Assembly (NCBI GenBank): GCA_903813345.2
Contig: CAIIXF020000001.1
Location: forward strand, 15,562,001 to 15,626,000
From: Owenia fusiformis
Taxonomy: Eukaryota
DNA length: 64,000 bases
Reading direction: 5' to 3'
Positions 23,069 through 64,000 of the stretch are shown in pieces (the first letter of the stretch is position 1; every line of letters starts with the position of its first letter). A program made the position numbers and the translations under genes. The notes below the pieces were generated by a model. The model was not told the DNA's origin. It was given only the letters and a program-made list of their open reading frames with translations, and ran no database searches.

Positions 23069-23232
23069 TAATATTCAATAGTTTATAATGTCATAAATGC
23101 CTGTTTATGTTTACAATTGATCTTAATTGACACATTTTGAACCAATCACAATACTGCACATTAGAATATTCTTATATATTTTAAGTTGTCCATGTTTTGA
23201 GTCATTTTACTGATAGATCTTGAACAGACAAC

Positions 23233-24823: not shown

Positions 24824-24882
24824 TAAATATTAGCAATTTAAAGAGAGATCGTCATTAAGGAGTCAGATTCCGACAGTGTAAG

Positions 24883-25980
24883 ATGGCATATCAAGACTAT
24901 TTAAAGAAATTATACTTTGACAGTCGAAATTCTGGAGCCTTTGCTGGACCAGACAAACTCTATAGAGCTGTACTAAATGATGGGAAATACCAGCTGTCCC
25001 GTTATCAGATAAAGAAATGGCTGGACAATCAAGAAGCTTATGGCCTACAGAGACCTTATAAGAAACGATTCGCTCGTAACAAAGTATATGTCTCGCATAT
25101 TGACGAACAATGGGATGCAGATCTTATGGATGTCTCTAATATATCATCGCAGAATGACGGGATAAAGTATATCCTGGTTGCGATTGACATTATGTCTCGC
25201 TTTGCCTGGGTTAGACCGCTACACTCCAAAACTGGAAAGGCAGTGGCGGAGGCTTTCGATGATATATTGAAAGAAGGTCGACAACCAGATGTCACTAGGA
25301 CGGACAAAGGTCAAGAATTCCGCGCTAAGGTTGTACAAACATTGTTGAATAGATGGGGAGTCCGCCATTTTGTTACGGGTAATACCCCCAAGGCCAACTA
25401 TGCAGAAAGATTGATAAAGACGTTAAAGACTAAAATAATGAGGTATATCACGTACAAACAGAACCATAGATTTATAGACAATTTACAAAACTTTGTGAAG
25501 AGTTATAACGCCACTTGGCATAGGGGTATAAAAATGGCTCCTAAAAATGTATCTAAAGACGATGAATTGGTTATTTGGTGGCGGATGTATTATCCTAAAT
25601 CAACTATCGTTAAAACCAAATCTAATCACATCTTTAAATTCCCCATTGGAGCTCTGGTAAGAATTACCCAGTCGAGACATGTTTTTAGTAGAGAATACGA
25701 CCAACATTGGACAGGGGAAATTTTTAAAGTAACGAAACGTTTTATTAGGCAGGGCCTCCCATTATATCGTTTAAATGATTTTCAAAATGAAGACATTAAG
25801 GGTACTTTTTACCAATCGGAGCTTCAAAGAGTACAAGCGAATGAAGATGATATTTGGAAAGTAGAAAAAATCTTGAAAACACGAACTAGACGAGGGCAAC
25901 GGGAACATTTAGTGCGTTGGCAATATTGGCCAAAAAAGTTTGATTCGTGGGTTAAAGATTCCGATTTAATACCTTTGTAA
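24883..25980 (+). CDS. Polinton-type retroviral-like (rve/c-integrase) DDE integrase with C-terminal chromodomain
   Basis: 365-aa intact ORF: WDADLMD, RTDKGQEF, YAERLIKTLK catalytic motifs; chromodomain WKVEKILKTR...HLVRWQYWPKKFDSWV. Confidence 0.92.
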   Translation: MAYQDYLKKLYFDSRNSGAFAGPDKLYRAVLNDGKYQLSRYQIKKWLDNQEAYGLQRPYKKRFARNKVYVSHIDEQWDADLMDVSNISSQNDGIKYILVAIDIMSRFAWVRPLHSKTGKAVAEAFDDILKEGRQPDVTRTDKGQEFRAKVVQTLLNRWGVRHFVTGNTPKANYAERLIKTLKTKIMRYITYKQNHRFIDNLQNFVKSYNATWHRGIKMAPKNVSKDDELVIWWRMYYPKSTIVKTKSNHIFKFPIGALVRITQSRHVFSREYDQHWTGEIFKVTKRFIRQGLPLYRLNDFQNEDIKGTFYQSELQRVQANEDDIWKVEKILKTRTRRGQREHLVRWQYWPKKFDSWVKDSDLIPL

Positions 25981-31100: not shown

Positions 31101-34100
31101 CTCCCCTATGACTCCTGGTTCAAAAGCTCGCCTATTTTCAAAATGGCCGCCATTTTTTGCGAAATTCACTTTTGACCCATTTCCTAGCTTTACAAATAAT
31201 TTCAAGTGTCCTACATTGTAAAAATCCATGTCAATGTAAAGAAAAGATGTATGAAATAATTATCCCACCGAACGAAGTTCGAGAGGGATATAGGAAAGCC
31301 GTCCGTCCGTCCATGCCGTCCGTCCGTTCGTCCGTCCGTCCGTCTGTTTGTCCGGGTGATAACTCAAATACCGTTTCACGGATTTGATTCAAATTTAATA
31401 GGCTTATGCCTTATGGGTGTAGGACCTCTGCTCGAGAAGGAATTTTCAATATGGCCACTGAATTCAAAATGGCCGCCATTTTTCATAAAAAATGTAATCT
31501 TTAATAACTCAAATACTAGTTTGCGGATTTGGTTCAAATTTTATATGCTGATGCCTAGGGACAACGGAGTGTCGCACAACAAGAGATTTTCAAGATGGCC
31601 GCTTAATTTCAAAATGGCGGCCATTTTTCATAAAAATATGTAATCTTTGATAACTCAAATACCAGTGAATAGATTTGGTTCAAATTTTATATGATGATGC
31701 TTAAGGACACAGTAGCTATGTTCAACAAAAATTTTTCAAGATGGCCGCTTAATTTCAAAATGGCGGCAATTTTTCGTAGAAAACGTAATCTTTGATAACT
31801 CAAATACCAGTGAACGGATTTGGTTGAAATTTTATATGATTATGCCTAGGGACACAGTAGGTCTGTTCAAGAAATAATTTTCAAGATGGCGGCTGAATTT
31901 CAAGATGGCGCCCAATTTTCGTAAAAAACGTAATCTTTGATAACTCATACACCAGTGGATTTGGTTCAAATTTTATAGGCTTATGCCTTATGAGTGTAGG
32001 ACCTCTGCTCAAGAAGGAATTTTCGATATGGTCGCTCAATTCAAAATGGCCGCCATTTTTTGTAAAAAATGTAATTGTTGATAATTCAAATACAAGTTGA
32101 CAGATTTGGTTCAAATTTTATATGCTGATGCCTAGGGACAAAGGAGTTTTGCACAAAAAGAAATTTTCAAGATGGCCGTTTAATTTTAATATGGCGGCCA
32201 TTTTTCGTAAAAATATGTAATCTTTGATAACTCAAATACCAGTGAACGGATTTGGTTCAAATTTTATATGATGATGCTTAGGGACACAGTAGCTATGTTT
32301 GACAAAAAATTTTCAAGATGGCCACTTAATTTCAAAATGGCGGCAATTTTATATGATTATGCCTAGGGACACAGTAGCTCTGTTCAAGAAATAATTATCA
32401 AGATGGCGGCTGAATTTTAAGATGGCGGCCAATTTTCGTAAAAAACGTAATCTTTGATAACTCATATACCAGTGAACGGATTTGGTTCAAATTTTATATG
32501 ATGATGCCTAGTTCACAATGGTATAAACTAACTTTGTGCCAAATTTCATGCTTCTATCACAAAGTGCACAAACATTTCAACATTTACACTAGCTATAATA
32601 AGCATAATATGTTTTGTTCGGTGGGATTTGCCACTCCGTGGAGTTGCTGTTTTTCTAGTTTTGTTACGAGAAATCAGCGAAAAATTATATCCATTTTTCA
32701 GCCATTTTAGTTAACATTGATTCGTCCATCTGTCTCGCAAAATCCACTTTTGGACCATTTACCTTAAACCCTCTGTCGATAGGATTCCCGTTTTAAGTTA
32801 ATTTTGTTCAATATCAATACAAAAAACTCTCCTATCACTCTTGGTTCAAAAGCTCGCCTATTTTCAAAATGGTCGCCATTCTTGTTTCGCGAAATTCACT
32901 TTTTGCCCATTTCCTAGCTTTACAAATAATTTCAGCTGTCCTGCATTGTAAAAAGCCACCATGTTTAAACGTAAACCATGATACCATGGTATACCATGGT
33001 TTACCATGGTCTATCATGATCGGCAATGAAATTACCATCAACTCTGACCATGGTGGCAATGATGTTTTTTTGGTCAATTTTTGACCATGGTATACCATGG
33101 TATATCATGTTATACCATATTTCATGGTATTTCATGTCCAAAGTTTGCCATCAAATACCATGGTATTTCATTGCCATGTTCCTGACTATCATTTACCATG
33201 GTATTACCATGGTATATCATGGTTGATTGCATTTCATTGTAAGATGTGACAATCAAATACCATGGTATTTCAATGCCATGTTCCTGACCATAATTTACCA
33301 TGGTATATCATGGTTGATGGCATTTCATTATAAGATGTGACAATCAAATACCATGGTCATACCATGGTATTTCATTGCCATGTTCCTGACCATCATTTAC
33401 CATGGTATTACCCTTGTATATCATGGTTGATGGTATTTCATTGTACAATTTGACAATCAAATATCATGGTCATACCATGATATTTTATTGTTATGTACCT
33501 GACCATCATTTACCATGGTATTACCATTGTATATCATGGTTGATGACATTTCATGGCATTTCATTGTACCGTGTGACAATCAATTACCATGGTCATACCA
33601 TGTCATTTCATTGCCAAAATCATAACTCTCATTTATCATGGTTTTATAATTGCATTTCATGGTTGGTGGTATTTCATGGCATTTTATTGTCAAACCTGAC
33701 CATCAAATACTATGGTCACACCATGGTATTTCATTGCCATAATCATAACTATCATTTATCATGGCATATCATTGCATTTCGTGGTTGATTGTATTTCATA
33801 GCATTTCATTGTCAAACCTGACCATCAAATACCATGGTTATACCATGGTATTTTATTGCTAAAAAGAACTCTACAAGAGTCTCAAGACTAAAATTGGTCA
33901 GAGTTGAAATGGATCATGAAATGCAATGAAATACTACGTTTAACCATGAAATGCAATGAAATACAATGATTGATCATGATATGCAATGAAATGCAATGGT
34001 CTTTCTTGCAATGCAGTGAAATACAATGAAAGGCCATGTTCAAAAAGTATTTTTTACATGAAATATCTTTATTAATAAATGTTGATTAGATAACCAAATT

Positions 34101-37100
34101 ATTATAATTAGTGATTCTGATATTCATCAAAATCACAACTTTATATACTTTTGTTCCTTTATTTAATTAATTAATTTCTATTATGAATAATTAAGTTAAT
34201 AACCCTAGAAACAATTTTTTTTTTGTTAAACAAATATGCTTTACTTTTATTTGACTGTTGTCGGTTAAATAGGAGATCAACTTAATATTTTGTAAGTCAA
34301 ACCTCCAGTCTTCGATTAAACATCTTGACTGTACTTCATTGCACTTGATGGTTTGCAACCAAGAAATACTGCAAAATAGCAGTATTTTTAAATGCAAAAT
34401 TTTAAGTATAGTTTCCACAGTATACCATGGTAGATTGTGATAATTAAATGGCTCCATTGCATATCATGGTTAAATGTTTAGACCATGATATCACTGCATT
34501 TGATGGTATTTGACCATGAAATACTGTGAACAGTGGTATTTTTTAGATACAAAATTACATGTTAATTGACCATGGTATACCATGGTATATCATGATCGTT
34601 AAATGGCACCATTGCATTTCATGGTCAGGAGCGTTTTTTTAACATGGAGTTTCCCATTGAAAAAATACTGCCGTTTCACAGTATTTCATGGTCAGAAACC
34701 ATCAAATGCAATGATATCATGGTCAAGAAACCATCAAATGCAATGATATCATGGCCGAGAACTTGACCATGATATCATTGCATTTGATGGTTTCTGACCA
34801 TGAAATACTGCGAAACGGCAGTATTTTTTCAATGGAAAACTCCATGTTAAAAACGCACTGTTAACAATGAAATGCAATGGTGCCATTTAACGTTCATGAT
34901 CGGCCATGGTATTACCATGGTATTTCATTGCATTTCATGGCCATATACCATGGTATACCATGGTCATACCATGGTATACCATGGTATGGCCATGGTCCAT
35001 TTCAACATGGAATGTCACTGTAAAGAGTAGTTGTATGAAATAATTTTGTTACAAAAAATCGGCAAAATATTATATCAGTTTTTTTTATTTTCAGCCATTT
35101 TAGTTAACATTGATTTGTTCATCAGTCTCGCGAAATCCTCTTTTGGACCATTTACTTAAAACCTCTGTCGATAGGATTCCAGTTTCACGTTATTTTTGTT
35201 CAACATCAATACAAAAAAACTCCCCTTTGACCCCTGGTTCAAAAGCTTGCCTGATTTCAAAATGGTCGTCATTTTTGTCTCGCTAAATTCAATTTTGGCC
35301 CATTTCCTAGCTTTACAAATAATTTCAGGTGTCTTGCATTGCAAAAAGCCATGTCACTGTAAAGAGTAGTTGTATGAAATAATTTTGTTCCAAATAATTG
35401 AAAAAAAATTATATCCGTTTTTTTCAGCAATTTTACTTAACATCGATTTGTCCATCTGTCTCTCCGTCAGTCCAAAATAGTGGCAAGTGGCTTGAAATAA
35501 TTTTGTTACAAAAAATCAGCAAAAAATTATATCCGTTTTTTTCTGTCACCATGTGAGCCCAGTACCCACGGTACTAATTTTTTTATATTTCAGATACTAG
35601 TCATATACATGTATAAATGTATAATGTCCAGTAAAGCTGTGGCCTTTTGTAGGGAGTTTCATTCATGTTAATTTTTCCGAAAATAACATGGCTGAGAAGC
35701 ATCAAAAAATAAGAGGCCACAGATATGATAGCTAAACTGCAAAACAAACTAAAATATACAAAAGTTAGGACATGTATAAATGTTTCTATTTTTATACTGT
35801 TTCAATATGGTCTTTTAATTGCTTATTTTTTAGATTCAAAGTAGTTCAAACCTTTAAAATTTTACTGTAGATCTTAACAAAATGATAAAATGAAGTTACA
35901 ACACACTCACAGTCATAGTGAGTCTGAGCTGAGTGTTCCCATAAATACACAGAGAGCCAATGTTTTACGATTTTAAGTCTCCGAGTAGCTGTACCGAAGC
36001 CATTATGGGGCTAGACTATATCCTCTAGTCTGAAATTTTTTTGAAAAATTATTTGGAATGAAAATATTCAGACTATAGCCCACACATATGTTAAAATCTG
36101 GGATTGAATAATATTTTTGTTTACATAGACAAAAGACACATCAAACTATTGAATGTTGATCTTTATATTTCATTGAGATTGATAATATGTCAGAAAGGAA
36201 TATTGAGTTTATTAATTTATATCAGAGTGAGGAAAAATGGTTAAATGTTCTCAGAAAAAGTTTAAAAATCTGCATAATTTATCTGAAAAATAAAAATAAA
36301 GTTTTCTAAAAACGCAATTTTTTCTTATTTTTATTTTTATTATTTTTTATATAAATATTATTATGGGAAATTTTCAGAATGCACCAGAGAGGGTCTAAAT
36401 TTCAAAATTTTCTGGGGGGAGGGGCATATACGCTATACTTTGTTTCCGCCCCCCCCCCCCAATTGATTATACTACCTTCATTAGGATTAGATGATTCATT
36501 CTCCTATTTTCAATGAAAACATGCGGATTTTGGTCTGAAAAACCACAAATTGTTCTCAGATGACTCTTGAACGTAAAAAATGGTCCTTTCATTCAGTGCA
36601 ATTTGAGGAGCAATTTGCTACCTGATAATATTTTCTTGGAGCATTTTTGTTGCTACCTGAATATGGGAATTTGCTCCTTGTTTTGGTAGAAGGTAGCAAA
36701 TCCTTGCTACTGGTAAAAAAAGTTAAGGTCAGACCCTGAAGTGCCATTCAAAATGGCCGATTGGGTAAATTAATTTGCATATTTGTTACTTCTCCTAGCT
36801 TTATTTCCACTTGACAATATGCTATGTTACTTTTTGTAGCATTTAATTGTACCTTACTACTTAATTGAATTGTTGCTATGTTGATTTTTGAGAAGTGAAG
36901 CTTCATAGAATTGATAATTTTGTGCAGAAAATTTCCTGTTTTTTTCCCACACGAGGGACATGATGATATATAGACAGAATTCTCTAGGTTCAGTCTATTG
37001 GATATAGACTAAGTATGGGGCTCTTGCCTTGTCACTTTTTACATCCGTTGAGAAATATTCCTCATGACACAGGTGCTCCCTGGGATAAATACGTCCATGC

Positions 37101-40100: not shown

Positions 40101-43100
40101 CCTCACTTTAATTTTTCCTTCACTTCACTGAGTTGAAAAAACAAATGGTAATGACTTTCATTGAAGCATTAAGCCCAACTATATCAGTTCTTGTATTATG
40201 AAGACAAGTGCTAATGATTGTCTCAAAGCTGGCATAAACTACTAATTACAGTAACATGTCTTGTGACTTTGTTAGATAAACATCAATTCAACAGGACATA
40301 ATCAGTGTTTTCCTTTCGTTGTAAAGATTTACGTCACACTGAGGTAGACCGTAGAAAATTTGAAAAGTGGATGTTACTGGTTAGTTAGTTTCAAAATCTT
40401 CCAGTCATATTCAAGATCTACATGTTCAAAACCTTCAGGTAGATGGACAAGGGTAACATTGGACATATTATTAGCATGTTGTAAACCACCTTTGAAGTCA
40501 AACATGAAAAAAATACTTCAAATACATAATTATTCCATATCACAGCTGTGTATACTGTAGACTATCTCTTTGTAGCTCCCAGGTCTGCATACCTCATCTG
40601 AAGCGAGGCACAAATCCACACATTCTTAACATCAGCCCACCTTTAAACATGAAATCAATGTGGTTCAGAGGACATGTTGGTAAGTATTCAAAGTATTTCC
40701 TCAAATTATACAACAAACAGTTAATATTTTAATAACATGTAATAAACATGCAAAGAGAGAAATAACGAACCTTCCAAATTCTTGTGAGTGATAATATCGA
40801 GAATAAGATACCAGTATAAAACAAAATAAATTGTACATGATGCAGCACATTCCTGTATACTATAGCATTTTTCATGTTAAGTGCTGCCATCTTTCAATGG
40901 GTCTCTTATAGGTGTTGTAGGGTAAGGGATTGCCTTTCATTTTCTGTAACTTGGGGGTATTTAAGAGAAATGTTAGGCTTCGTTCAGTAGAGAGTTAGAT
41001 GGGGGGGGGACATCACACATCATTTCTTTTCATCTTATTAATCTCATTTTCATTCTTTATCTTTGAACAGTTTTATTATCCCAACGAACGAAGTTCGGTA
41101 GGGATATAGTGAAGCCCTCCGTCCGTCCGTCCGTCCGGAAGATAACTCAAATATTAGTTGACGGATTTTCTTCATATTTAGTGGAAAGATGTATATTGAT
41201 GATAAGTTTTTTTCAAGATGGCCGCCGCTTTAAAAATGACGGGACTTTTTCGCAAAAATCATAAATTTTTCATTCTAAACCAAAGTAATTAATATTATTG
41301 TTTGAAATTTTGGTAGTTTATTCGCAACATCTATCTATTTCACATATATTCCGTGTTTTTCATCCTGACCCCCAGGGGCCGTGTATGGGGGGTCAGGAAA
41401 ACAGAAATTTTCGCTAATTTTTAGATCTCTCTGAAGTATAGCTTTATTATACTCAAATGAAAGGCAATTAAGAGTAGATTGCAAATATTGTATCTTTTTT
41501 CTGATTCGAGCCTTGTAAACTTCAAAATGGCCGTCTAATGTACGATTTCGCAATAATTTTTCGATCCCTTCAACGTATGGCTATGTATGGCTATATAATA
41601 CTCAAATTGAAGGAATTTTGGAGTTGATTACAATTATGGTATTATTTTTCAGATTCGTACCTCAGAAAATTCATAATGGATTTTTTCAAGATGGCCGCCG
41701 CTTTAAAAATGACGGGACTTTTTCGCAAAAATCATAAATTTTTCATTCTTAACCAAAGTAATTAATATTATTGTTTGAAATTTTGGAAGTATATTCGCAA
41801 CATCTATCTATTTCACATATATTCTGTGTTTTTCATCCTGACCCCCAGGGGCCGTGTATGGGGGGTCAGGAAAACAGAAATTTTCGCTAATTTTTAGATC
41901 TCTCTGAAGTATAGCTTTATTATACTCAAATGAAAGGCAATTAAGAGTAGATTGCAAATATTGTATCTTTTTTCTGATTCGAGCCTTGTAAAATTCAAAA
42001 TGGCCGTCTAATGTACGATTTCGCAATAATTTTTCGATCCCTTCAACGTATGGCTATGTATGGCTATATAATACTCAAATTGAAGGAATTTTGGAGTTGA
42101 TTACAATTATGGTATTATTTTTCAGATTCGTACCTCAGAAAATTCATAATGGATTTTTTCAAGATGGCCGCCGCTTTAAAAATGACGGGACTTTTTCGCA
42201 AAAATCATAAATTTTTCATTCTTAACCAAAGTAATTAATATTATTGTTTGAAATTTTGGAAGTATATTCGCAACATCTATCTATTTCACATATATTCTGT
42301 GTTTTTCATCCTGACCCCCAGGGGCCGTGTATGGGGGGTCAGGAAAACAGAAATTTTCGCTAACTTTTAGATCTTTCTGAAGTATAGCTTTATTATACTC
42401 AAATGAAAGGCAATTAAGAGTAGATTGCAAATATTGTATCTTTTTTCTGATTCGAGCCTCGTAAAATTCAAAATGGCTGTCTAATGTACGATTTTGCAAC
42501 AATTTTTCAATCCCTTCAATGTATGGCTATATAATACTCAAATTGAAGGAATTTTGAAGTAGATCACAATTATGGTATTATTTTTCAGATTTGTACCTCA
42601 GAAAATTCAAAATGGCTGCTTTGCAGGAATTCACAATTTTAAAATCTAAATTTTTCAATTTTAACCAAAGTAATGAGTATAATTGATTGGAATTCGGTAA
42701 TTGATATTTTGTTCGTTGGGATTTGCTACTCTGCGGAGTTGCCATTATTTTATACTGAAGAGTGTAATTGTACATGTTTAGTCTTTTACTTGGAATATAG
42801 TATAGTTTTATGAGTATATTAATTCTGTGTTAATCTTGTCTTTTTTACATAACAAGACCAATCCATATTATTTTATGAAGAACCCACAGAGCTATTTAAA
42901 CAACAAAGCTCGAAGCTTCAATACATTAGAAATACTATATATGTCTGAATATGATTGTACGCACATAGAGTATGTACATAAAAAACTAGCATACTACAAT
43001 GTTGTATATTTGCTTTGTGTTCCAGCCTACACAATGGCCAAATATGGCATGTCAATGTGTGTACTTGGGATGGCAGATGAATTCAAAGATGATGGAGTAG

Positions 43101-52202: not shown

Positions 52203-53870
52203 CCTTCCCCCCCCATTTTTGATATTTTTGTTGTCTAGAAGTGTTCTAGACGATATCAAAGTTTAAGAAAATGTGTATGTCTCGAAATATTTTGAAAATT
52301 AGTGCCATTATGGCGGGTCTGGGTGTTTTTTGCTCTCATTTTTACCCATTTCCACGGTTGCAATGGTAACTCATACCTGCCAACCTACCGTATTTTTACC
52401 GGCATCTACCATAAAAAATAATATAAATACCGTAAAAAATTACTGTTTTTTCTTGTAAAACAACCGAAAAAATCTACTGTAATTTTACCAAAATCTACCA
52501 TAAAATATTTTATTATAATTAGATTTTTTCTATAAGAACGGCCGTAAAATATACCGTAAATATTTGAAAATCTACCATATTTCTGCTTGAATTAACAGTA
52601 TTCTTGTTCAAACTACCGTAAAATCTACCGCAATTATCATTAAATAATGAAAAATTGAATTCTTCTCGTATTGCCCTTGTAAAATTCCATTACCAACCCG
52701 AAAATAAATAGGTGCCGGCAGGTCTTTGATGGTGGTTATTGCGTACTTAGTAAGTAACTAAGTAAGCTGGCATGTAATCAATCAACACACTGGGGAATAA
52801 ACAGTGTTCAACTACCACAGGTGTATCACAGGAAGAGTAATCATGATTAATTTGTAAATTGCTACATTGTAGCAATGGTATGAGTATGATGTCACAGTAC
52901 ACTGGGGTCTAACTGGCGTAAAGGGGGAGAAAAAGGGCAAATTTTGCACATGGGGACCACATTTGACTCAAAATATTTGCATTTAACAACATACGTTTCA
53001 GTACATTCTGTGTATGATTTCAAAATGAAATAATCTCGGGGATTTTGCGTCTAAATTTTTTGCATGAGATCTCTGAAGTTGATAACCCAAGTTTAGGTCA
53101 TTTTGGCCAGTTTTTAGAGACTCAGCCCTCACCTATTTCCCCAAATATGACTAGATTTTGTAGAAAATGTGTTAAAAGTTTGAAAATGCAGCTGTTTTGA
53201 GCATGAAATAACTCAATTGTTTGAAAAAATGCTGAATGAGCAAAATTTATCATAGAAAAATTTTCCCATTTTTGGATATTAAGGTGTTACTACGGTAAAT
53301 ACCACTTCCGGGTAGTGTTTTTTAATACTTTAAAAACGAAGCCATGAAACTTCAATGGTGTGTATAGTAGGTTTAAGTGTATGCAATGTGGCCATTTGAG
53401 GTATGTATGTAAAGCTGAGGCCAATTACTTTCTAAATGTGCCCTTTTTAGAAAAAAATCGCAAGAATATAGTCCCGTAAACTTGAACTACTTTATTCGTT
53501 AATTTTCATCGGTGAAGCAGGGATTTTACCTAAAAATGAGTCCCTGTGTTGGCGTAGTGATATTTAAAAATCAAGACGCAAACCCTATGTTAAATATATG
53601 GTCAAGATGAAGGTCATGTATAGGGGAACGCAGAAATATAGTTCTTGTATGGGCTAATTCGTTCGAAAATGGCGATATGTATCCCAGAACCTGAATTTTG
53701 TGATTTTTCAATATTTTTCAATGATTTACCGTAGTGACACCCAAATGGAAATATAAACACTTCCGGTAAATATTCGGTTCAAGTGCGAGTTTGGACCAAC
53801 TTTTGCAAGTTTGACCAGGAAATCACCTTTCATTTGGTATGTTAGTAACATTTTTGATCGTATTGGGTAT

Positions 53871-56695
53871 TGTAACAACTAGCCTAATTTGGGTAGTGTG
53901 GATGGTTGTTATTTATTTTATTAGGCTAGGTCACTTCGAGGGATACTTGGTGCACATTAAATGCACGTGAAGATATAGCGACACAACATCGAATATAAAA
54001 TAAACACACATATATTGTTGCTTATTCAGCCCAAAAATGTATACAGAATAAATCGGTGTAAAATAAGTTGTAAAAGGCTACTTGAAAGTTCTTTGTTTAT
54101 GTGAAATATCAAAGTTTATATTAAAGAGTGTCTATCCATTTCTCACTATCAGTTGTCGAAAATTGCTATCTTTCTGACATCAGTTATCGAGAATATTCTA
54201 AGTTTCTGGACATCATTGGTCGAGAATATTCTATCTTTCTAGACATCAGTTATATCTTCTAAGTTTCTGGACATCAGTTATATGAAATATTCTAAGTTTC
54301 TGGACATCAGTAATCGAATTATTCTAAGTTTCTGGACACCAGTAATCGAAATATTCTAAGTTTCTGGACATCATTGGTCGAGAATATTCTATCTTTCTGA
54401 CATCAGTTATATCTTCTAAGTTTCTGGACATCAGTTACACGAAATATTCCAAGTTTCTAGACATCAGTCGTTGAAATATTCTAAGTTTCTGGACATCAGT
54501 AATCGAAATATTCTAAGTTTCTGGACATCATTGGTCGAGAAGATTCTATCTTTCTGACATCAGTTATATCTTCCAAGTTTCTGGACATCAGTTACACGAA
54601 ATATTCCAAGTTTCTAGACATCAGTCGTTGAAATATTCTAAGTTTCTGGACATCATTGGTCGAGAATATTCTATCTTTCTGACATCAGTTATATCTTCTA
54701 AGTTTCTGGACATCAGTTACACGAAATATTCCAAGTTTCTAGACATCAGTCGTTGAAATATTCTAAGTTCCTGGACATCAGTAATCGAAATATTCTAAGT
54801 TTCTGGACATCATTGGTCGAGAATATTCTATCTTTCTGACATCAGTTATATCTTCTAAGTTTCTGGACATCAGTTACACGAAATATTCCAAGTTTCTAGA
54901 CATCAGTCGTTGAAATATTCTAAGTTTCTGGACATCAGTAATCGAAATATTCTAAGTTTCTGGACATCATTGGTCGAGAATATTCTATCTTTCTGACATC
55001 AGTTATATCTTCTAAGTTTCTGGACATCAGTTACACGAAATATTCTAAGTTTCTGGACATCAGTAATCGAAATATTCTAAGTTTCTGGACATCATTGGTC
55101 GAGAATATTCTATCTTTCTGACATCAGTTATATCTTCTAAGTTTCTGGACATCAGTTACACGAAATATTCCAAGTTTCTAGACATCAGTCGTTGAAATAT
55201 TCTAAGTTTCTGGACATCAGTAATCAAAATATTCTAAGTTTCTGGACATCATTGGTCGAGAATATTCTATCTTTCTGACATCAGTTATATCTTCTAAGTT
55301 TGTAGACATCAGTCGTTGAAATATTCTAAGTTTCTGGACATCAGTTATCGGGAATATTCTATCTCTCTGGACATCAGTTATACGAAATATTCTAAGATTC
55401 GGGACATCAGTTGTTGAGAATATTCTATCTTTCTGACATCAGTAATCGAAATATTCTAAGTTTCTGGACATCATTGGTCGAGAATATTCTATCTTTCTGA
55501 CATCAGTTATATCTTCTAAGTTTCTGGACATCAGTTACACGAAATATTCCAAGTTTCTAGACATCAGTCGTTGAAATATTCTAAGTTTCTGGACATCAGT
55601 AATCGAAATATTCTAAGTTTCTGGACATCCTTGGTCGAGAAGATTCTATCTTTCTGACATCAGTTATATCTTCCAAGTTTCTGGACATCAGTTACACGAA
55701 ATATTCCAAGTTTCTAGACATCAGTCGTTGAAATATTCTAAGTTTCTGGACATCATTGGTCGAGAATATTCTATCTTTCTGACATCAGTTATATCTTCTA
55801 AGTTTCTGGACATCAGTTACACGAAATATTCCAAGTTTCTAGACATCAGTCGTTGAAATATTCTAAGTTCCTGGACATCAGTAATCGAAATATTCTAAGT
55901 TTCTGGACATCATAGTTGAAATATTCTAAGTTTCTGGACATCAGTTGCCGGGAATATTCTATCTTTCTGACATCAGTTGCTGGGAATATTCTATCTTTCT
56001 GGGATGTCGTAAATATTCTAAGTTTCTCAGCCTCTTAGTCCCTCGTCTGTAGATGAGACACTGGCATAGGAGCTCCTTCCTCTTCAAAAGTGGTGTACGT
56101 GTCTGCTAGGAGCGATCAGTGCTCTGCTTTTATACCCCAGACATGTATGTAGCATGTACTAGGCACATGGCTTTCACGTGACTAATGGGCTGATGCAAGA
56201 CCTAGTCAGTCCACTAGAATCCCAGGCAGGATATCACTAGTGCAAAATAAACAACCATGGTGCAATGAGGAAATAACTTTTGCAAAATAAATGGCTTTGC
56301 TTAGCAATCACGATTTCTGCTGTTTAACACAAAACGAACACATATCTTGTAATGTATTAGCTAGATTAAGATATAAACTAGATAAATATAACAAAAACCA
56401 ATCATCATTAGCTCTAATTATGGTGAAATTGCAAGGAAAAACGAGTAAGTGAATGTAGGTCAGCAGAGTTCTTCTACAGGAAGTGAGAAAAATGTACAGA
56501 TAAAAACAAAAATAAATCTCACAGAAAATAGCAGTTAAAACGACTCCCTGTACATCTAAAGTGTTCCATACCTTAATGTAAGTATAACACAACCTTGACT
56601 GGGAAACACTTTCCTACTGTAAAAACTGTCTGAACTGCTAGAAAATGGTATTTGACTCCAAAAATAAAAAATTGAAAAATTAAAAATTTGTTACA
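53871..56695 (-). repeat. 3' LTR
   Basis: Direct repeat of 59929-62753 at offset 6058; TG...CA ends. Confidence 0.95.
54140..56030. repeat. Higher-order tandem array (28-33-bp monomers) inside the 3' LTR
   Basis: Recurrent core TTCTAAGTTTCTGGACATCA with a small set of variant monomers. Confidence 0.95.
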
Positions 56696-56707
56696 CTCCT
56701 CCCATCC
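56696..56707 (-). other. Polypurine tract
   Basis: Minus strand GGATGGGAGGAG immediately before the 3' LTR TGTAAC. Confidence 0.75.
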
Positions 56708-57039
56708 AATGATTTTGGTGTTTACAACACCAAGCCTAAATACATAAAAAGATAACAAATTTTTCCTAACTAGATATTTTCTAAAAATATAACCTGCCAA
56801 ATATACTTAACCCCAGGGTCAACTAGCTGCAACTACAATGCACAACGAAAGTTCGGAAACCTAAACTCATTAAACGCTGGTATCTCAAAACTTAACACTA
56901 AATATCTAACTACCTACTTAATACAAATGTCTAACTACTATGTACAAAAACCTTTCAGTTTTAACTCTCAGCTAATTGTTAAGTATGAATACAAAATTAT
57001 ACTCATGCTAAATGTCTCGTTCAAGGCTCAACTCTCTGG

Positions 57040-59880
57040 TTAGTGCTTCACTCTATGGGAATAACAATGATCCCTCCAGTCGCCATCCAAGTCACGTTCA
57101 GGTTGAGTCCTCCAATGTCTCATTCTATTCATTTTGGATAGGGGTGCCTTAGCTGAGTAAGTTCTAGGTTCCTCATCCGTACTGTCAATTCTAAGGTTGT
57201 AGTCTTCACTTAGCCCAGACACTTTACAACATCTTTTGTTCCTGGCACATCTATGTCCTCTGAAGCAGGAAAAACCAGCTAGGTCCGCAGCTGTCCTCCT
57301 AGACGATCTCTTGGGATGTGTCGAGCTGTCTCTCGTCCCAAATCTTTCTCGTTGATCTACCTCTCTGTCTTTGACTTCACTCGCTTGATCTTTAGGCACT
57401 CCTGAGTCTATAGGGTGATCAGCAAAACTTCCTTGATTCTCTGACTCAAATGTCATTTTACACTGGCGATAGTTCAATACAGCTCCAGAGGCAGCTAAGT
57501 AATCTGTGCCTAAGATTCCGTCAAAGCCAATGTCGGCCACAACAACCTCTATGTTCTCTGTATGACCATCAATGTTAACCTCAAGACATGAAACACCTTT
57601 CGTTTGCAGCGGTTGTCCACCAGCTTGCAAGATAACTCTCTTAGGCGGCTCAAGCTTGGGTCTTCTGTGTTTAGGTATATTCTGGTAGACCTTTGAACTC
57701 ATGATAGTACTAGCTGCTCCAGAGTCAACTAAAAATGAAACATTGGTGTCGCAAACTGTACCATGTGCCACTATCTTCTGAGTGTCCTTGGGAGACTGAA
57801 CATCATTCCCCTGCAGAGAAAGAAATTCAATGGTAGCAATCTGGCCAGATCTCTCATGTACTGTTTTATCTCGCTCTTCGGCACGCTTCCTTGAATAACA
57901 ATCAGCTATCCGGTGACCAGGCTTGTGACAATAGAAACATTTAGGTCTATTGTTCATGTTCTCCCTATTTGTAGATTCCAATCTGGTTAACTTCATCAGG
58001 TCAACCATTTTCTCCAGGTTCTTGGTGCAAGCTTCTTGCACAGCTTGTTGCATTTGTTCTATCATTTGAGCCATCTTCTGGAACACATCTTCCTTATTAT
58101 CAGGAGTACTTACTGAGTTGCAGTACTCTTCCTCGGAATCGATGAAGTTCACCCTTAACTTTGGTTTTTGGCCTTTCCTTATTCGTTCTGATTCTAGAAA
58201 CGACTCCTCCTTGAGGGCTACTTCTATGGCCTTATCGAGTGTAATGCATTCCTTCAAGTGTATTGTTCGTCTTATATCATCATCCTGAATAGCTTGCTCA
58301 AAGCTCCGTCTCGCTAGGCGATCTTGGGCTGACTGGCTCATCTCCGGATAAGCTAAAGCTGTGAGCCTGCGGATGTCCTGACCCAATGCCGGAAGGGATT
58401 CCTTTGGTTTTCGAATTCGGCCAACTAACTCTGCCTCATAGACGTCAGCTTTACCCCCAGGGCCAAAACGCTTCTCCAGGGCTAGGAGGAGTTGATCGTA
58501 GCTATAATCATGTCCCATCTCTAGCACTATTTGTTGGGCAGGTCCTCTCAGACTTGTTGCTAAGAACCTCCTCTTCTCCTCTTCCGACCATTTATTAGCC
58601 TCCCCACAAATCTCGAAATATGCTCTGTAATCTTGCCATGGTGTAGTTCCAGAATAAACGTCAGGTTTTATTTTGCTTTTGCTGGATTGTTGAGAAGTTC
58701 CTTTTACAAGTTTATCACATAACTTGGAGCACATTTTGACAAGCTCTGCTGATAGATTTGAACCATGAAGGCTATCATCATTTTCCGATCTGTCCACTGA
58801 ACCAGCTGGCTTTGGACTAGGAGATCTCTTCTTTGGTGAATCTTTAGGTTGATTAAGTGGCTCTTTCTTCCGGAATGGAGAAAAGCATTGAAAAGAGGTG
58901 GAATCAGCATGCTCATCCCCTGACTTGTCCCCAATTGGACCAAAACCCTCTAAATCTTCAGGTTGCTGCTGATTGAATTCCTGGGTTTTATCCTCCATCA
59001 AATTTGAACCGGGACTCAGCAAAACTTTATCTTGCCTACGCAGCTGCCAAGGCTTTGTCACACCTGAAGCCAATGGGGTAGGTGTAAAACAGTCTTCAGA
59101 CCTGGTGATTGAGGTAGTTTTTGGCATTGTAGGCTGATGTTGGCTATCATCCATCAAGGAAGTCTGCATTCTGGTGACATTTCCTGCATGACGGGGGTTA
59201 TCATATGATGGTGGAATACTAGCTTGAATTTTCTCCATCTGACTCTTGATACCCTGTAGTTGTGTCTGTTGTTGATCCTGACAACGTCGAACTTGCTCTG
59301 CGATCTGGGTAATGTTGTGTACTTGAGTACTTTGAGTCTCCAATACTTGCTTCATACACTTCTGTTGGGTTTCAGCCAAGTTTTGCATCTGTCTTTGTTG
59401 AGCCACCAAAGATTCACTAAACATCTCAATCCTTCTCTCAATCTTGCTTTCTATTACGTTTAAGTCTGGTCTCCTTGGATCCTCTTCTCTAAACCTCCTG
59501 GTTGATCCGCCAACAACAGAAGAAGTTAAAGGAAATCTTTGTCTTCCTTGGGGATCTCTTCTTTGAGAGATGGGGTCAAATGGCGTCTCAAGTTCTGTCG
59601 ATACACCTCCTGTCCAATATCCTGTACTCGATAAACTGGGCAACCCTCTCTGCTCAGTATTAATCTCAGTCATTTTGGGTCTGGCTCCTTCTGCCAGGGT
59701 GACCTTCCCAGGGGACTGTTCCTGTTCCGCATCATCTTCTATCACTGGTGCTGTCTCATCAGCGGCACCTGGATTATCGATTTCCATATCATCTGACTTA
59801 AGAAAAACTGTTTTCTCCAGGTCCCCCTCAGTTACGTCCTCAACAGCTGGAGGAGGTGGAAAGTCAGTTCCTTGTTCCAT
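57040..59880 (-). CDS. Gag-protease polyprotein (946 aa), no RT/RNaseH/integrase
   Basis: Gypsy capsid-like region KPDVYSGTTPWQDYRAYFE...WSEEEK...LRGPA; zinc knuckle CFYCHKPGHRIADC; aspartic protease FLVDSGA...GILGTDYL. Confidence 0.92.
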   Translation of the reverse strand: MEQGTDFPPPPAVEDVTEGDLEKTVFLKSDDMEIDNPGAADETAPVIEDDAEQEQSPGKVTLAEGARPKMTEINTEQRGLPSLSSTGYWTGGVSTELETPFDPISQRRDPQGRQRFPLTSSVVGGSTRRFREEDPRRPDLNVIESKIERRIEMFSESLVAQQRQMQNLAETQQKCMKQVLETQSTQVHNITQIAEQVRRCQDQQQTQLQGIKSQMEKIQASIPPSYDNPRHAGNVTRMQTSLMDDSQHQPTMPKTTSITRSEDCFTPTPLASGVTKPWQLRRQDKVLLSPGSNLMEDKTQEFNQQQPEDLEGFGPIGDKSGDEHADSTSFQCFSPFRKKEPLNQPKDSPKKRSPSPKPAGSVDRSENDDSLHGSNLSAELVKMCSKLCDKLVKGTSQQSSKSKIKPDVYSGTTPWQDYRAYFEICGEANKWSEEEKRRFLATSLRGPAQQIVLEMGHDYSYDQLLLALEKRFGPGGKADVYEAELVGRIRKPKESLPALGQDIRRLTALAYPEMSQSAQDRLARRSFEQAIQDDDIRRTIHLKECITLDKAIEVALKEESFLESERIRKGQKPKLRVNFIDSEEEYCNSVSTPDNKEDVFQKMAQMIEQMQQAVQEACTKNLEKMVDLMKLTRLESTNRENMNNRPKCFYCHKPGHRIADCYSRKRAEERDKTVHERSGQIATIEFLSLQGNDVQSPKDTQKIVAHGTVCDTNVSFLVDSGAASTIMSSKVYQNIPKHRRPKLEPPKRVILQAGGQPLQTKGVSCLEVNIDGHTENIEVVVADIGFDGILGTDYLAASGAVLNYRQCKMTFESENQGSFADHPIDSGVPKDQASEVKDREVDQRERFGTRDSSTHPKRSSRRTAADLAGFSCFRGHRCARNKRCCKVSGLSEDYNLRIDSTDEEPRTYSAKAPLSKMNRMRHWRTQPERDLDGDWRDHCYSHRVKH

Positions 59881-59908
59881 TTTCGAATATTGTATTACTA
59901 ATCAACAC

Positions 59909-59927
59909 AATCCCACCGCTGCCACCA
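59909..59927 (-). other. Primer binding site complementary to the tRNA-Leu 3' end
   Basis: Plus strand AATCCCACCGCTGCCACCA matches, from memory, the 3' end incl. CCA of animal tRNA-Leu(AAG/TAG); 1 nt from the 5' LTR. Confidence 0.85.
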
Positions 59928-60197
59928 ATGTAACAACTAGCCTAATTTGGGTAGTGTGGATGGTTGTTATTTATTTTATTAGGCTAGGTCACTTCGAGGG
60001 ATACTTGGTGCACATTAAATGCACGTGAAGATATAGCGACACAACATCGAATATAAAATAAACACACATATATTGTTGCTTATTCAGCCCAAAAATGTAT
60101 ACAGAATAAATCGGTGTAAAATAAGTTGTAAAAGGCTACTTGAAAGTTCTTTGTTTATGTGAAATATCAAAGTTTATATTAAAGAGTGTCTATCCAT

Positions 60198-62088
60198 TTC
60201 TCACTATCAGTTGTCGAAAATTGCTATCTTTCTGACATCAGTTATCGAGAATATTCTAAGTTTCTGGACATCATTGGTCGAGAATATTCTATCTTTCTAG
60301 ACATCAGTTATATCTTCTAAGTTTCTGGACATCAGTTATATGAAATATTCTAAGTTTCTGGACATCAGTAATCGAATTATTCTAAGTTTCTGGACACCAG
60401 TAATCGAAATATTCTAAGTTTCTGGACATCATTGGTCGAGAATATTCTATCTTTCTGACATCAGTTATATCTTCTAAGTTTCTGGACATCAGTTACACGA
60501 AATATTCCAAGTTTCTAGACATCAGTCGTTGAAATATTCTAAGTTTCTGGACATCAGTAATCGAAATATTCTAAGTTTCTGGACATCATTGGTCGAGAAG
60601 ATTCTATCTTTCTGACATCAGTTATATCTTCCAAGTTTCTGGACATCAGTTACACGAAATATTCCAAGTTTCTAGACATCAGTCGTTGAAATATTCTAAG
60701 TTTCTGGACATCATTGGTCGAGAATATTCTATCTTTCTGACATCAGTTATATCTTCTAAGTTTCTGGACATCAGTTACACGAAATATTCCAAGTTTCTAG
60801 ACATCAGTCGTTGAAATATTCTAAGTTCCTGGACATCAGTAATCGAAATATTCTAAGTTTCTGGACATCATTGGTCGAGAATATTCTATCTTTCTGACAT
60901 CAGTTATATCTTCTAAGTTTCTGGACATCAGTTACACGAAATATTCCAAGTTTCTAGACATCAGTCGTTGAAATATTCTAAGTTTCTGGACATCAGTAAT
61001 CGAAATATTCTAAGTTTCTGGACATCATTGGTCGAGAATATTCTATCTTTCTGACATCAGTTATATCTTCTAAGTTTCTGGACATCAGTTACACGAAATA
61101 TTCTAAGTTTCTGGACATCAGTAATCGAAATATTCTAAGTTTCTGGACATCATTGGTCGAGAATATTCTATCTTTCTGACATCAGTTATATCTTCTAAGT
61201 TTCTGGACATCAGTTACACGAAATATTCCAAGTTTCTAGACATCAGTCGTTGAAATATTCTAAGTTTCTGGACATCAGTAATCAAAATATTCTAAGTTTC
61301 TGGACATCATTGGTCGAGAATATTCTATCTTTCTGACATCAGTTATATCTTCTAAGTTTGTAGACATCAGTCGTTGAAATATTCTAAGTTTCTGGACATC
61401 AGTTATCGGGAATATTCTATCTCTCTGGACATCAGTTATACGAAATATTCTAAGATTCGGGACATCAGTTGTTGAGAATATTCTATCTTTCTGACATCAG
61501 TAATCGAAATATTCTAAGTTTCTGGACATCATTGGTCGAGAATATTCTATCTTTCTGACATCAGTTATATCTTCTAAGTTTCTGGACATCAGTTACACGA
61601 AATATTCCAAGTTTCTAGACATCAGTCGTTGAAATATTCTAAGTTTCTGGACATCAGTAATCGAAATATTCTAAGTTTCTGGACATCCTTGGTCGAGAAG
61701 ATTCTATCTTTCTGACATCAGTTATATCTTCCAAGTTTCTGGACATCAGTTACACGAAATATTCCAAGTTTCTAGACATCAGTCGTTGAAATATTCTAAG
61801 TTTCTGGACATCATTGGTCGAGAATATTCTATCTTTCTGACATCAGTTATATCTTCTAAGTTTCTGGACATCAGTTACACGAAATATTCCAAGTTTCTAG
61901 ACATCAGTCGTTGAAATATTCTAAGTTCCTGGACATCAGTAATCGAAATATTCTAAGTTTCTGGACATCATAGTTGAAATATTCTAAGTTTCTGGACATC
62001 AGTTGCCGGGAATATTCTATCTTTCTGACATCAGTTGCTGGGAATATTCTATCTTTCTGGGATGTCGTAAATATTCTAAGTTTCTCAG
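60198..62088. repeat. Higher-order tandem array inside the 5' LTR
   Basis: Same monomer order as 54140-56030. Confidence 0.95.
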
Positions 62089-62185
62089 CCTCTTAGTCCC
62101 TCGTCTGTAGATGAGACACTGGCATAGGAGCTCCTTCCTCTTCAAAAGTGGTGTACGTGTCTGCTAGGAGCGATCAGTGCTCTGC

Positions 62186-62192
62186 TTTTATA
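62186..62192 (-). promoter_or_regulatory. Candidate LTR TATA box
   Basis: GGGGTATAAAAGCAG on minus strand, with a CACGTG E-box ~45 nt upstream; ~560 nt from the LTR start. Confidence 0.55.
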
Positions 62193-64000
62193 CCCCAGAC
62201 ATGTATGTAGCATGTACTAGGCACATGGCTTTCACGTGACTAATGGGCTGATGCAAGACCTAGTCAGTCCACTAGAATCCCAGGCAGGATATCACTAGTG
62301 CAAAATAAACAACCATGGTGCAATGAGGAAATAACTTTTGCAAAATAAATGGCTTTGCTTAGCAATCACGATTTCTGCTGTTTAACACAAAACGAACACA
62401 TATCTTGTAATGTATTAGCTAGATTAAGATATAAACTAGATAAATATAACAAAAACCAATCATCATTAGCTCTAATTATGGTGAAATTGCAAGGAAAAAC
62501 GAGTAAGTGAATGTAGGTCAGCAGAGTTCTTCTACAGGAAGTGAGAAAAATGTACAGATAAAAACAAAAATAAATCTCACAGAAAATAGCAGTTAAAACG
62601 ACTCCCTGTACATCTAAAGTGTTCCATACCTTAATGTAAGTATAACACAACCTTGACTGGGAAACACTTTCCTACTGTAAAAACTGTCTGAACTGCTAGA
62701 AAATGGTATTTGACTCCAAAAATAAAAAATTGAAAAATTAAAAATTTGTTACAGTATGTAAGAATCATATACACGTCGAATTATTAGCATAAATGTCTCA
62801 GTTTGAACGATAAATGGAAATATAACACTTCCGGGAAATTTTGTCACAAACGCCTTATGGACTTTTCTCTATTATATTCCCTATATTTTTAGAATATACC
62901 ATTGATAGTGCTGACTGTGCTTCCGGGTTACTTGTGGGACTGAATATTTCCTAAAATTCCATTGGATGCCAAAAAGTTATGGGCGACTTCCGGTGGACAA
63001 AGTTGTTTTGAAAATATATGTATTTTGGACAATATCTCCATCAGTTGACTTTTAATTACGGTAAGTAGCATACCAAATTTTCCTGCTATAAGAGGCCTTC
63101 ACTATAGATATACATATTAGCACACGCAACACTAACATATCCCAAATATGAAGTAGAACTAGATATCTAATTTTGGACTTTTGAACGGAGATCAGAGATG
63201 GAATTTGCACATATTTCACTGATTTTGTTCACGGAGTCAAGATTGATTGTAGAAGTATCAGCACCTCACGAAAAGTTCCCCATACAACAGAAAATTTCAA
63301 GGACCACCCTCAGGAACGCCTATCGGTACACCATAAAGAATTACAAAAGCTATGGAAATTACTTGCTGTCGCACATGTAATAAATTCTTAACTCAGTGTA
63401 TTCAGTGCTCGATTTTCTCCGTCCTAGAAAGTCCAGATAAAGTGGAATTCGTGTCCATAATGACAAATAAGAACTTAAAAATTTGAAGTGGAATTCACAT
63501 TGCCGATGTGGATTGGCTCCCAGAATGCTGCAACATGACACGTGTCAGCTTTCAAAATGCTGTTCCGCCATTTTGAAATCTGTCATGAGTAAATAAGGTT
63601 ACTTGATGTTGCATTCTGGGAGTCAATCCTCCTTGGATCACAAATTCATGAAAACATTCGTTAGATTTGGTAGGGATTCATCCATCATTTGCAGGTATGA
63701 AGCTTTGGATTCATTTATTGTGCTACTTAAAGTCAATGGGAATTATTTTTCTACCACTTGGGAGAGTTTGAGACACGAAACTTAGAATTTAGCTCATTGT
63801 GACAACTTTTGAGGGTTGAGATTTATTTTTGCACCCCACTTTAGTGGAGTTGTCCTTGTTGTTGTTGGTATCCTGATGGCAGTATGGTGTAGAGGTGTCA
63901 AGTATTAACCGGTTAACCGGTTAACCGCCGATAATGCCTTGACCGGTCTGAGTTTTTATGGGCGGTTAGTTGACCGTGTATAATTCTGTTATTTCCCGCG

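Follow-up and report, generated by a model that had tools for sequence, protein, structure and literature searches.

The closest described systems come from wheat and barley, where RLG_Sabrina_SA and RLG_WHAM are termed 'semi-autonomous' Gypsy elements with RLG_Wilma as their partner (PMC9744471). As the main text of that study presents them, they retain an intact Gag-protease ORF without reverse transcriptase or integrase, have lost pol family-wide, have long co-evolved with their partner and share only a few motifs with it (PMC9744471). Non-autonomous RLC_Angela elements are described there as making 'host switches' to new autonomous partners via LTR sequence, by template switching or conversion (PMC9744471). 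RLG_Quinta, with its one helper RLG_Cereba, is reported to encode a Gag and an unknown domain, its Gag diverging from that of the helper (PMC11302176), and a role as suppliers of surplus capsid has been put forward for both Sabrina/WHAM and Quinta (PMC9744471, PMC11302176). TR-GAG elements, defined as shorter than 4 kb and without protease (PMC4350172), and sugar-beet GAG/PROT elements (PMC13570524) likewise carry a single Gag ORF between LTRs, with a primer-binding site (PBS), polypurine tract (PPT) and target-site duplication (TSD). Non-autonomous grass pararetroviruses, which belong to another class of element, share and homogenize non-coding regulatory sequence with their partners, and their partnerships are described as kept or changed by region-specific recombination, as here (PMC5491270). 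Gag-Pro-only elements and host switches at the level of the LTR are already known in wheat. In soybean, LTR swapping reportedly lets non-autonomous elements gain new autonomous partners (Du et al., 2010).

We analyzed an element within a 64,000-nucleotide stretch of the Owenia fusiformis genome (the window; contig CAIIXF020000001.1, positions 15,562,001 to 15,626,000). Its nearest precedent is the wheat Sabrina/WHAM Gag-Pro type, nearer than TR-GAG, and like those families it combines an intact Gag-protease ORF with a family-wide lack of pol and long co-evolution with autonomous partners. It differs from their published descriptions in that the 5′ half, capsid included, matches that of the present partner at 88–99% and has repeatedly been exchanged, with at least six families as donors, in that the host is an animal and in that the 1.7–5-kb LTRs are filled with tandem arrays. 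We regard semi-autonomous Gag-Pro as a functional class rather than a lineage and treat the likeness to the wheat families as probably convergent. The Angela and soybean swaps, as described, involve LTR sequence within one family and decayed coding regions, whereas in this genome the exchange extends to the capsid gene, takes place between families with 40–50% protease identity and leaves a selected protease constant. Unlike in Quinta as described (PMC11302176), Gag here follows that of the helper, and it is the protease that diverges. Our literature search, which covered main texts, found no serial capsid capture around a conserved protease.

A Gag-protease element without pol

The element lies on the minus strand at positions 53871–62753 of the window (8883 bp). 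Its LTRs (5′, 59929–62753; 3′, 53871–56695; both minus strand) make up 63.6% of this length, and alignment over their 2825 bp gave 0 mismatches, bearing out the original prediction of a young insertion with LTRs indistinguishable by eye and accounting for 64% of the element. They run from TG to CA with inverted termini TGTAACAA/TTGTTACA, and the predicted 4-bp TSD GTAT is present on both the 5′ side (62754–62757) and the 3′ side (53867–53870). A TATA box at LTR nt 562 (62186–62192) lies in a U3-like part (LTR nt 1 to ~600; 62150–62753), labeled as such from the TATA position, which is common to other pol-less subfamilies and absent from the autonomous partner; similarity to the partner's LTR begins at the TATA box and is continuous from about LTR nt 605. 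The size of the LTRs reflects array expansion, because 1.86 kb of each (60197–62059 in the 5′ copy, 54139–56001 in the 3′ copy) is a ~32-bp minisatellite of about 59 units of 28–33 bp; the partner's LTR carries the same array family (82%). The sole AATAAA in the LTR, at nt 2774 (59975–59980), is a candidate poly(A) signal.

The PBS (59910–59927, minus strand) is complementary to the 3′ end of host tRNA-Leu(AAG), as had been proposed for a tRNA-Leu. Genome-wide there are 17 copies of its complement together with a T-loop motif, against 0 for the control, and two of three scanned loci matching this combination are tRNA-Leu(AAG) genes. Directly upstream of the PPT, located at 56696–56707 on the minus strand, is a perfect 8-bp hairpin (56715–56733) that recurs in pol-less and autonomous relatives, in 44 of 78 stretches, many pol-bearing stretches stopping short of the 3′ end.

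Between PBS and PPT runs the single uninterrupted 946-aa ORF (59880→57040), with the domain order that the original prediction had read from it. The Gag N-terminal region (aa 1–402; 58675–59880) has 77–99% DNA identity to the autonomous partner and contains a Q-rich stretch (Q fraction 0.22 at aa 160–260 vs 0.07 across the whole protein). The capsid domain (aa ~403–578; 58147–58674) resembles the capsid-type PNMA profile at E 6e-4 and the CCHC knuckle of the nucleocapsid (NC; aa 648–661; 57898–57939) the zf-CCHC profile at E 0.035, both below cut-off. The aspartic protease (57448–57774), which marks the pol-less clade described below, exceeds the curated Pfam cut-offs for Asp_protease_2 and gag-asp_proteas at aa 706–795 and carries an LVDSGA motif at aa 717–722 (DSG at 57732–57715). 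A comparison with solved structures found two weak matches, one to retroviral-like aspartic protease 1 (E 2e-4), the other to Ty3 Gag-Pol (E 0.009). All these domains, like the basic tail that follows (57043–57447), are on the minus strand. The predicted tail is there, at about 135 aa rather than the ~120 first given, and is weakly constrained (pN/pS 0.98 in the window family). We considered it as a vestige of a post-integrase tail and rejected this, as no helper protein scored above window-shuffled controls against a profile built from 37 tails; the reading holds for elements L129–136 only.

Only 344 nt separate the stop codon from the 3′ LTR, in keeping with the earlier view that there is no room for reverse transcriptase (RT), RNase H (RH) or integrase (IN). 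Six-frame translation revealed no second long frame in 56696–57450, tblastn searches using RT, RNase H, integrase and spacer of the partner as queries gave no match 3′ of the capsid, and neither method found remnants of these domains between protease and PPT. The TG..CA LTRs, PBS, PPT and short TSD are all those of Ty3/gypsy elements, and the pol order PR-RT-RNaseH-IN is absent from the window element and present in the partner. Since it has its Gag in common with that pol-bearing partner, we classify it as a non-autonomous Ty3/gypsy derivative. The element is not of the TR-GAG type named in the original prediction: it is multi-copy and lacks RT, RH and IN, but at 8883 bp and with an intact protease it falls outside the published definition. 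Nor is it a LARD or TRIM, which have no coding capacity, as it encodes the 946-aa ORF with a protease under purifying selection.

A homolog search with protease plus tail, covering 1298 candidates of lengths 520–1656 only, returned none at E ≤ 0.001. With the capsid-to-tail query, phmmer against the full library gave 6792 matches at E ≤ 0.001; among the best 150 of these (best identities 28–51%), none extended past query residue 415, hence none reached the tail. These matches come without names or context and are therefore silent on the lineage's presence in other species.

One protease lineage with 5′ halves from several families

Our trees comprised 75 related elements from the O. fusiformis genome, 52 pol-less and 23 pol-bearing, after L079 (stop in the capsid) and L112 and L138 (capsid coverage <80%) had been dropped. 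On the protease, 45 of the 75 form a single pol-less clade (support 100/99, stem 0.34) with no pol-bearing row inside; the same 45 scatter in the capsid tree, and mapping the pol/no-pol label takes 3 changes on the protease tree and 11 on the capsid tree. With 28 thinned rows, monophyly of the pol-less rows was present for the protease (97/99) and rejected for the capsid (p-AU 1e-33). Forcing three pol-less groups to join their partners on the protease was likewise rejected (p-AU 3e-8, 4e-78 and 3e-4).

Across the family, RT and integrase are absent and the Gag-protease ORF is intact: DSG and CCHC are retained in 45/45 clade members, and capsid and protease share a single open frame in 44/45. 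Purifying selection acts on the protease in the pol-less lineage, which is the outcome of the dN/dS check suggested at the outset: dN/dS was 0.13–0.26 in 9/9 between-subfamily pairs (upper CI at most 0.43; dS 0.5–1.8), and pN/pS was 0.14 in the window family. The same internal layout recurs at many loci with individual TSDs, which argues against an assembly artefact. LTR pairs of all 11 complete pol-less copies differ by 0–1 substitutions, two of the 11 have a TSD with one mismatch, and tandem copies are present among the pol-less elements.

The search for a pol-encoding partner succeeded: one exists that has LTR end, PBS and gag N-terminus in common with the element. Together with the window copy, 36 other clade members (37/45) pair with one of six autonomous Ty3/gypsy families, sharing PBS, LTR termini and PPT region with them; a 4-bp, TA-centered TSD is common to pol-less copies and partners. 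Partner ORFs are single, 2588–2753 aa, and free of stops and frameshifts in 7/8 long elements read to the end. The alternative first offered, one half of a bipartite gag-pro/pol system, is not supported, as the partners found carry their own gag and protease with pol in one ORF.

Identity along these pairs is sharply divided. The window copy and its partner are 77–99% identical over a stretch that opens shortly after the TATA box and reaches into the capsid, yet the window protease is only 49% identical to the partner's and 64–82% identical to those of other pol-less subfamilies; across nine tested pairs, capsids share 88–99% of amino acids and proteases 40–50%. The N-half of the window capsid is 93% identical to the partner, the main breakpoint lies near 58244, and the C-half (about 200 nt) is 68–76% identical to the partner and to all tested elements. 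Copy L042 matches its partner at C5:36.42 Mb at 94–100% in 17 of the 18 windows of 100 nt that cover PBS to capsid end (82% in the other), then drops to 25–70% beyond it. MaxChi placed a breakpoint in 14/14 triplets (0/500 permutations each). In five of six pairings, the LTR starts to resemble the partner's within about −16 to +75 nt of the TATA box; in the sixth, the entire LTR including U3 is partner-type. Breakpoints lie in two places: at the TATA box or slightly beyond it, and in the interval from the end of the capsid to the start of the protease. In L129–136, which have two knuckles, the first resembling the partner's, tail and 3′ UTR are 80–85% identical to the partner's post-integrase end, and an NC-protease piece has replaced the partner's PR-RT-RH-IN.

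Capsid and protease trees agree for the six partner families, and the pol-less side is therefore the recipient. The pol-less 5′ half (R/array, U5, PBS, leader, gag N-terminus, capsid and sometimes knuckle) derives from one of at least six autonomous families. What defines the lineage is its own protease, together with tail, 3′ UTR and U3. For 8/45 clade members no matching autonomous element was found, and when the Gag N-termini of L043 and L048 were used to look for helpers, all close matches were pol-less elements. As such copies have near-identical LTRs, either mobilization does not strictly require a matched 5′ half or this assembly lacks the helper.

Probable helper switching and competing explanations

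We consider it likely that the window element inserted very recently and belongs to a long-lived pol-less Ty3/gypsy lineage, one that is cross-mobilized by autonomous relatives and switches helpers by recombination, probably borrowing its copying enzymes from complete relatives. The element would be transcribed from its own U3 promoter, and its Gag-protease would co-assemble with the partner's Gag-Pol, with copying by the partner's RT and insertion by its integrase. In mixed particles, an RT template switch could yield an RNA whose 5′ half is of helper type; this RNA would gain packaging, priming and att signals matching the new helper and a capsid fit for it, while the retained protease may mature the element's own Gag and cut off the tail. 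The original prediction of a non-autonomous parasite of an autonomous gypsy, making its own Gag and protease, is supported by the copy number, open frames, selected protease and partner, all read from sequence. Against helper switching stand the eight members without a matched helper, the unmatched capsid C-half of the window copy, the wholly partner-type LTR of the sixth pairing, the two imperfect TSDs and the near-neutral pN/pS of the tail.

Independent internal deletions, in which every autonomous family spawned a pol-less form of its own, the window copy being that of its partner, would explain why capsid, U5 and PBS track the autonomous families, and appear to fit L128 (capsid 98–100% and protease 99% to L126) and perhaps L117–L125 beside L116. 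Yet the window protease is closer to other pol-less subfamilies than to the partner, and too divergent from the latter for the copy to have arisen as a one-off deletion from an element that otherwise matches it; the AU tests reject partner-plus-parasite protease clades; and tail, 3′ UTR and U3 are common to the pol-less subfamilies, with no or only short blastn matches in partners. For the 45-member clade, repeated deletion is refuted unless each subfamily had an unsampled autonomous element with such a protease, and we hold it to be very improbable. Still less credible is a collapsed or chimeric repeat. Array-filled LTRs are difficult to assemble and polishing can create perfect LTR identity, but each locus has its own LTR length (1655–3179 bp), TSD and Gag haplotype with an identical layout and open frame, junctions preserve the reading frame, and subfamily dS exceeds 1.

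The mosaic could also have formed in DNA, by ectopic crossover or gene conversion at capsid-end or knuckle homology followed by retrotransposition, the capsid hitchhiking unselected with the 5′ signals; ectopic recombination plus one retrotransposition round would yield the same mosaic. Breakpoints lie in the stretches most conserved between partner and parasite (capsid end and knuckle), as suits homology-driven crossover, eight of the 45, all young copies, have no matched helper in the assembly, and the tandem copies show that rearranged forms exist. Many distinct breakpoints per family (the window copy versus L037–39; L042 versus L044), finely mosaic Gag N-termini that suit frequent template switching, and the chromosome rearrangements that dispersed ectopic crossovers would cause all point the other way, none decisively, and we think this origin unlikely. 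Compatible with helper switching is a mutualism in which single-ORF helpers, making Gag and Pol 1:1 by default, rely on Gag-protease elements for surplus capsid protein. The uninterrupted partner ORFs, a pol-less companion for all six partner families and the excess of pol-less elements in the sample favor it. Splicing, early polyadenylation and Pol turnover serve as routes to surplus Gag in other single-ORF elements and could do so here, and one autonomous family (L120, L122, L123 and L139) has no pol-less companion in the trees; we find such reliance doubtful, if less so than a DNA-level origin.

Implications for retroelement biology

Classification by capsid or LTR misplaces such elements, and RT-based surveys of transposable elements miss the pol-less group, which outnumbered helpers in our sample. 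How non-autonomous LTR elements survive helper turnover, and whether the Gag-coding ones are parasites or partners, has been debated mostly on plant data. The minisatellite LTRs and mosaic origin go beyond what was first noticed at this locus. The O. fusiformis genome offers six young helper/satellite pairs joined by one protease lineage, and since their breakpoints are mapped, these pairs can serve as natural replicates for comparing capsid compatibility, helper specificity and Gag stoichiometry.

With low confidence, and much less than in helper switching itself, we propose an ancient NC-protease satellite that serially recombines into active gypsy families, with capsid capture selected because a satellite must co-assemble with its helper, and that supplies the helpers' surplus Gag in an obligate link. 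The NC-protease module, usually with tail, 3′ UTR and U3 promoter, would persist without any pol gene, and each active gypsy family would give rise to a Gag-protease satellite with a helper-matched capsid. If so, O. fusiformis would harbor a multi-family, obligately linked helper/satellite system in an animal genome.

A very recent insertion without pol

The window element lies at 53871–62753 on the minus strand (8883 bp) and is flanked by GTAT. Its two 2825-bp LTRs, which show 0 mismatches, make up 63.6% of its length, in line with the original prediction of a young element that is about 64% LTR. By our own calculation, 0 differences in 2825 sites place the divergence of the pair below about 0.1% (95% bound), so the insertion is dated only as very recent. 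In each LTR, about 1.86 kb consists of an array with roughly 59 units of 28–33 bp, and LTR length spans 1655–3179 bp among complete relatives, so LTR size reflects array turnover. Should the TATA box and the only AATAAA both be functional, LTR nucleotides ~600–2790 would form an R region of ~2.2 kb holding the whole array and, if so, an unusually long strong-stop DNA.

The single 946-aa ORF encodes, in order, a Q-rich N-terminal part, a capsid (a PNMA-type match below the Pfam cut-off), a CCHC knuckle, an aspartic protease (above the cut-off) and a basic tail; this layout had been anticipated, except that the tail, put at ~120 aa, is 135 aa long. As also expected, a similarity search found no RT, RNase H or integrase 3′ of the capsid, and the PBS matches host tRNA-Leu(AAG), with 17 genome matches against 0 for the control and tRNA-Leu called at two of the three scanned loci among these sites. 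The PBS (59910–59927) and those of relatives exist in two forms, one C/T apart, that alternate among copies within the same subfamily, in pol-less satellites and autonomous helpers alike; the 17 tRNA-like matches have one form only, and the alternation may reflect a miscopied modified primer base.

In the host assembly (499.5 Mb, 819 contigs), whose gene content and repeats suggest an invertebrate animal, the internal region has 79 matches, of which 10 cover its full length unbroken at 90–100% identity; a capsid-to-protease query returned at least 117 matches, from 101 of 809 candidates scored. All 11 complete pol-less copies have LTR pairs differing by 0–1 substitutions and TA at positions 2–3 of the left TSD copy; the 4-bp TSDs match exactly in 9 of the 11, and two of the three partner copies read show the same pattern. 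Tandem pol-less copies occur at L037/L038 (a middle LTR in common, one TSD around the pair), L049, G000:C7:16.52 Mb and C4:25.35 Mb.

Elsewhere in the window, a 4.4-kb element (22284–26657) with terminal inverted repeats of ~165–230 bp contains an A32-type packaging ATPase (23396–24823) and an rve integrase with chromodomain (24859–25980), and presumably resembles a cut-down Polinton/Maverick-like element. A 515-aa minus-strand frame with a coiled region and NHL repeats (1851–3398) is probably an exon of a host TRIM-NHL-like gene. Further repeats, namely several minisatellite arrays and long MITE-like palindromes, occupy 761–1613, 5023–5444, 30500–35500 and 41200–42700.

Partner families and the mosaic

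Autonomous partners have long single ORFs (2588–2753 aa) in which gag and protease precede RT, RNase H and integrase, the arrangement typical of gypsy elements. In these partners (L081/L082 etc.), a 500–700-aa low-complexity extension follows integrase and ends in a conserved ~35-aa motif common to five families. One such family, at C12:35.6 Mb with a second, truncated copy on C494, fits the pol-encoding partner that had been proposed: it shares the 3′ end of the LTR, the PBS and the start of Gag with the window copy. The two are 94% identical in the unique 3′ part of the LTR, 82% in the array and, taken in 100-nt steps between the PBS and mid-capsid, 77–99%; identity then falls to 68–74% over 200 nt and beyond that to 52–68% or unalignable sequence. 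For the window copy's U3, protease and tail, blastn matches to the partner were absent or short only, whereas other pol-less subfamilies match at about 70–95%. Among 40 scored matches, the window-type U3 either brackets pol-less copies as a pair or, in a few cases, belongs to a single LTR; it is absent at the partner locus. The C-terminal half of the window copy's capsid had no close donor among the elements tested.

Trees were built from 75 of 78 elements read, 52 without pol matches and 23 with; the C494 element, truncated by the end of its contig, was assigned manually to the pol-bearing set on the strength of its 96.7% identity to a full copy. On protease, 45 pol-less elements including the window copy form one clade (support 100/99, stem 0.34) that includes no pol-bearing element, and the pol/no-pol label changes 3 times, in a tree of 114 columns with a long-branch warning on the outgroup side. 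On capsid it changes 11 times. AU tests (28 rows) rejected capsid monophyly of the pol-less elements (p 1e-33) and partner-plus-satellite protease clades in 3/3 cases, with p-values that are optimistic because groups were picked after the first trees were seen.

Six satellite–partner pairings include 37 of the 45 clade elements: the window family (11), L042/44/46/47 (4), the C8:33.5 Mb (7), C4:26.5 Mb (2) and C6:38.3 Mb (5) groups, and L129-136 (8). Satellite U5 is 95–100% identical to the partner's wherever it was located by script, and in nine pairs capsids are 88–99% and proteases 40–50% identical. MaxChi detected a switch in 14/14 triplets (0/500 permutations). In the first two groups it falls where the capsid ends, in the others at the knuckle or past it. 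LTR similarity begins at or shortly past the TATA box in five of six pairings, a boundary that would correspond to the expected U3 end. In the extreme case, L129-136, LTR, Gag, first knuckle, tail and 3′ UTR are all partner-type, and only the second knuckle and protease come from the pol-less lineage, replacing the partner's PR-RT-RH-IN. The six partner families cluster in the same way in the capsid and protease trees, which makes the pol-less side the recipient.

Selection and alternative origins

The protease evolved within the pol-less clade, so dN/dS measured on it tests a protein of the satellite itself. The ratio, a check already suggested for gag-pro, is 0.13–0.26 in 9/9 between-subfamily pairs (dS 0.5–1.8), which are not independent, and 0.18–0.85 in five close pairs, with confidence intervals including 1 in three; pN/pS within the window family is 0.14. 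The tail is weakly constrained (0.35–0.81, and 0.98 among window-family copies); constraint on its terminal motif is stronger (0.09–0.51, wide intervals). DSG and CCHC are present in 45/45 clade elements, one open frame joins capsid and protease in 44/45, and it exceeds 850 codons in 40/45.

For eight of the 45 young clade elements the assembly contains no matching partner, and targeted searches of it for two of these orphans' subfamilies were negative. Plain deletions probably also give pol-less elements: L117-125 and L128, whose 3′ LTR was not located, have no pol matches in the stretch read, yet in the protease tree they fall beside their own partners. L117-L119, L121, L124 and L125, with Gag-protease frames of 878–1319 aa sister to autonomous L116 on protease, are a possible independent second pol-less lineage. 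A third tier comprises L143 (G000:C2:33.79 Mb) and six similar matches. L143, the one of the seven that was read, has a ~372-aa frame holding the Gag N-terminus and knuckle without capsid or protease; its U5/PBS end resembles that of the C5:36.42 Mb helper, and its 3′ UTR/U3 that of the pol-less clade. The same mosaic is also predicted if elements recombined at the DNA level and then retrotransposed.

Known systems and a proposed mechanism

In wheat, 'semi-autonomous' elements of the Gag-Pro kind are described, as are host switches mediated by LTRs (PMC9744471). Quinta/Cereba (PMC11302176), sugar-beet GAG/PROT families (PMC13570524), recombination in the course of reverse transcription (PMC6894440) and pararetrovirus partners (PMC5491270) offer further comparison. 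The window element falls outside the size and no-protease definition of TR-GAG in PMC4350172. In the accessible part of an annelid TE survey (PMC8556966), nothing was found on nonautonomous elements or tandem repeats. Our literature search, which took in little of the subscription literature and no supplements, found no paper in which a single pol-less protease lineage captures capsids serially, nor any that places a system of this kind in an invertebrate. The original observation is confirmed, and the original reading of the window element as a parasite of an autonomous gypsy is supported, and extended by the mosaic and the partner families.

Beyond the observed composition, mosaic, breakpoints, selection and recent insertion, general retrotransposon biology makes a chain of steps quite likely: the satellite would be transcribed from its U3 and its Gag-protease translated; this would co-assemble with helper Gag-Pol; helper RT and integrase would act on the common PBS, PPT hairpin and LTR ends; and templates would switch in mixed particles. 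We tentatively offer two further hypotheses, each rather unlikely as it stands: selection would favour matched capsids, and the helpers would depend on the additional Gag.
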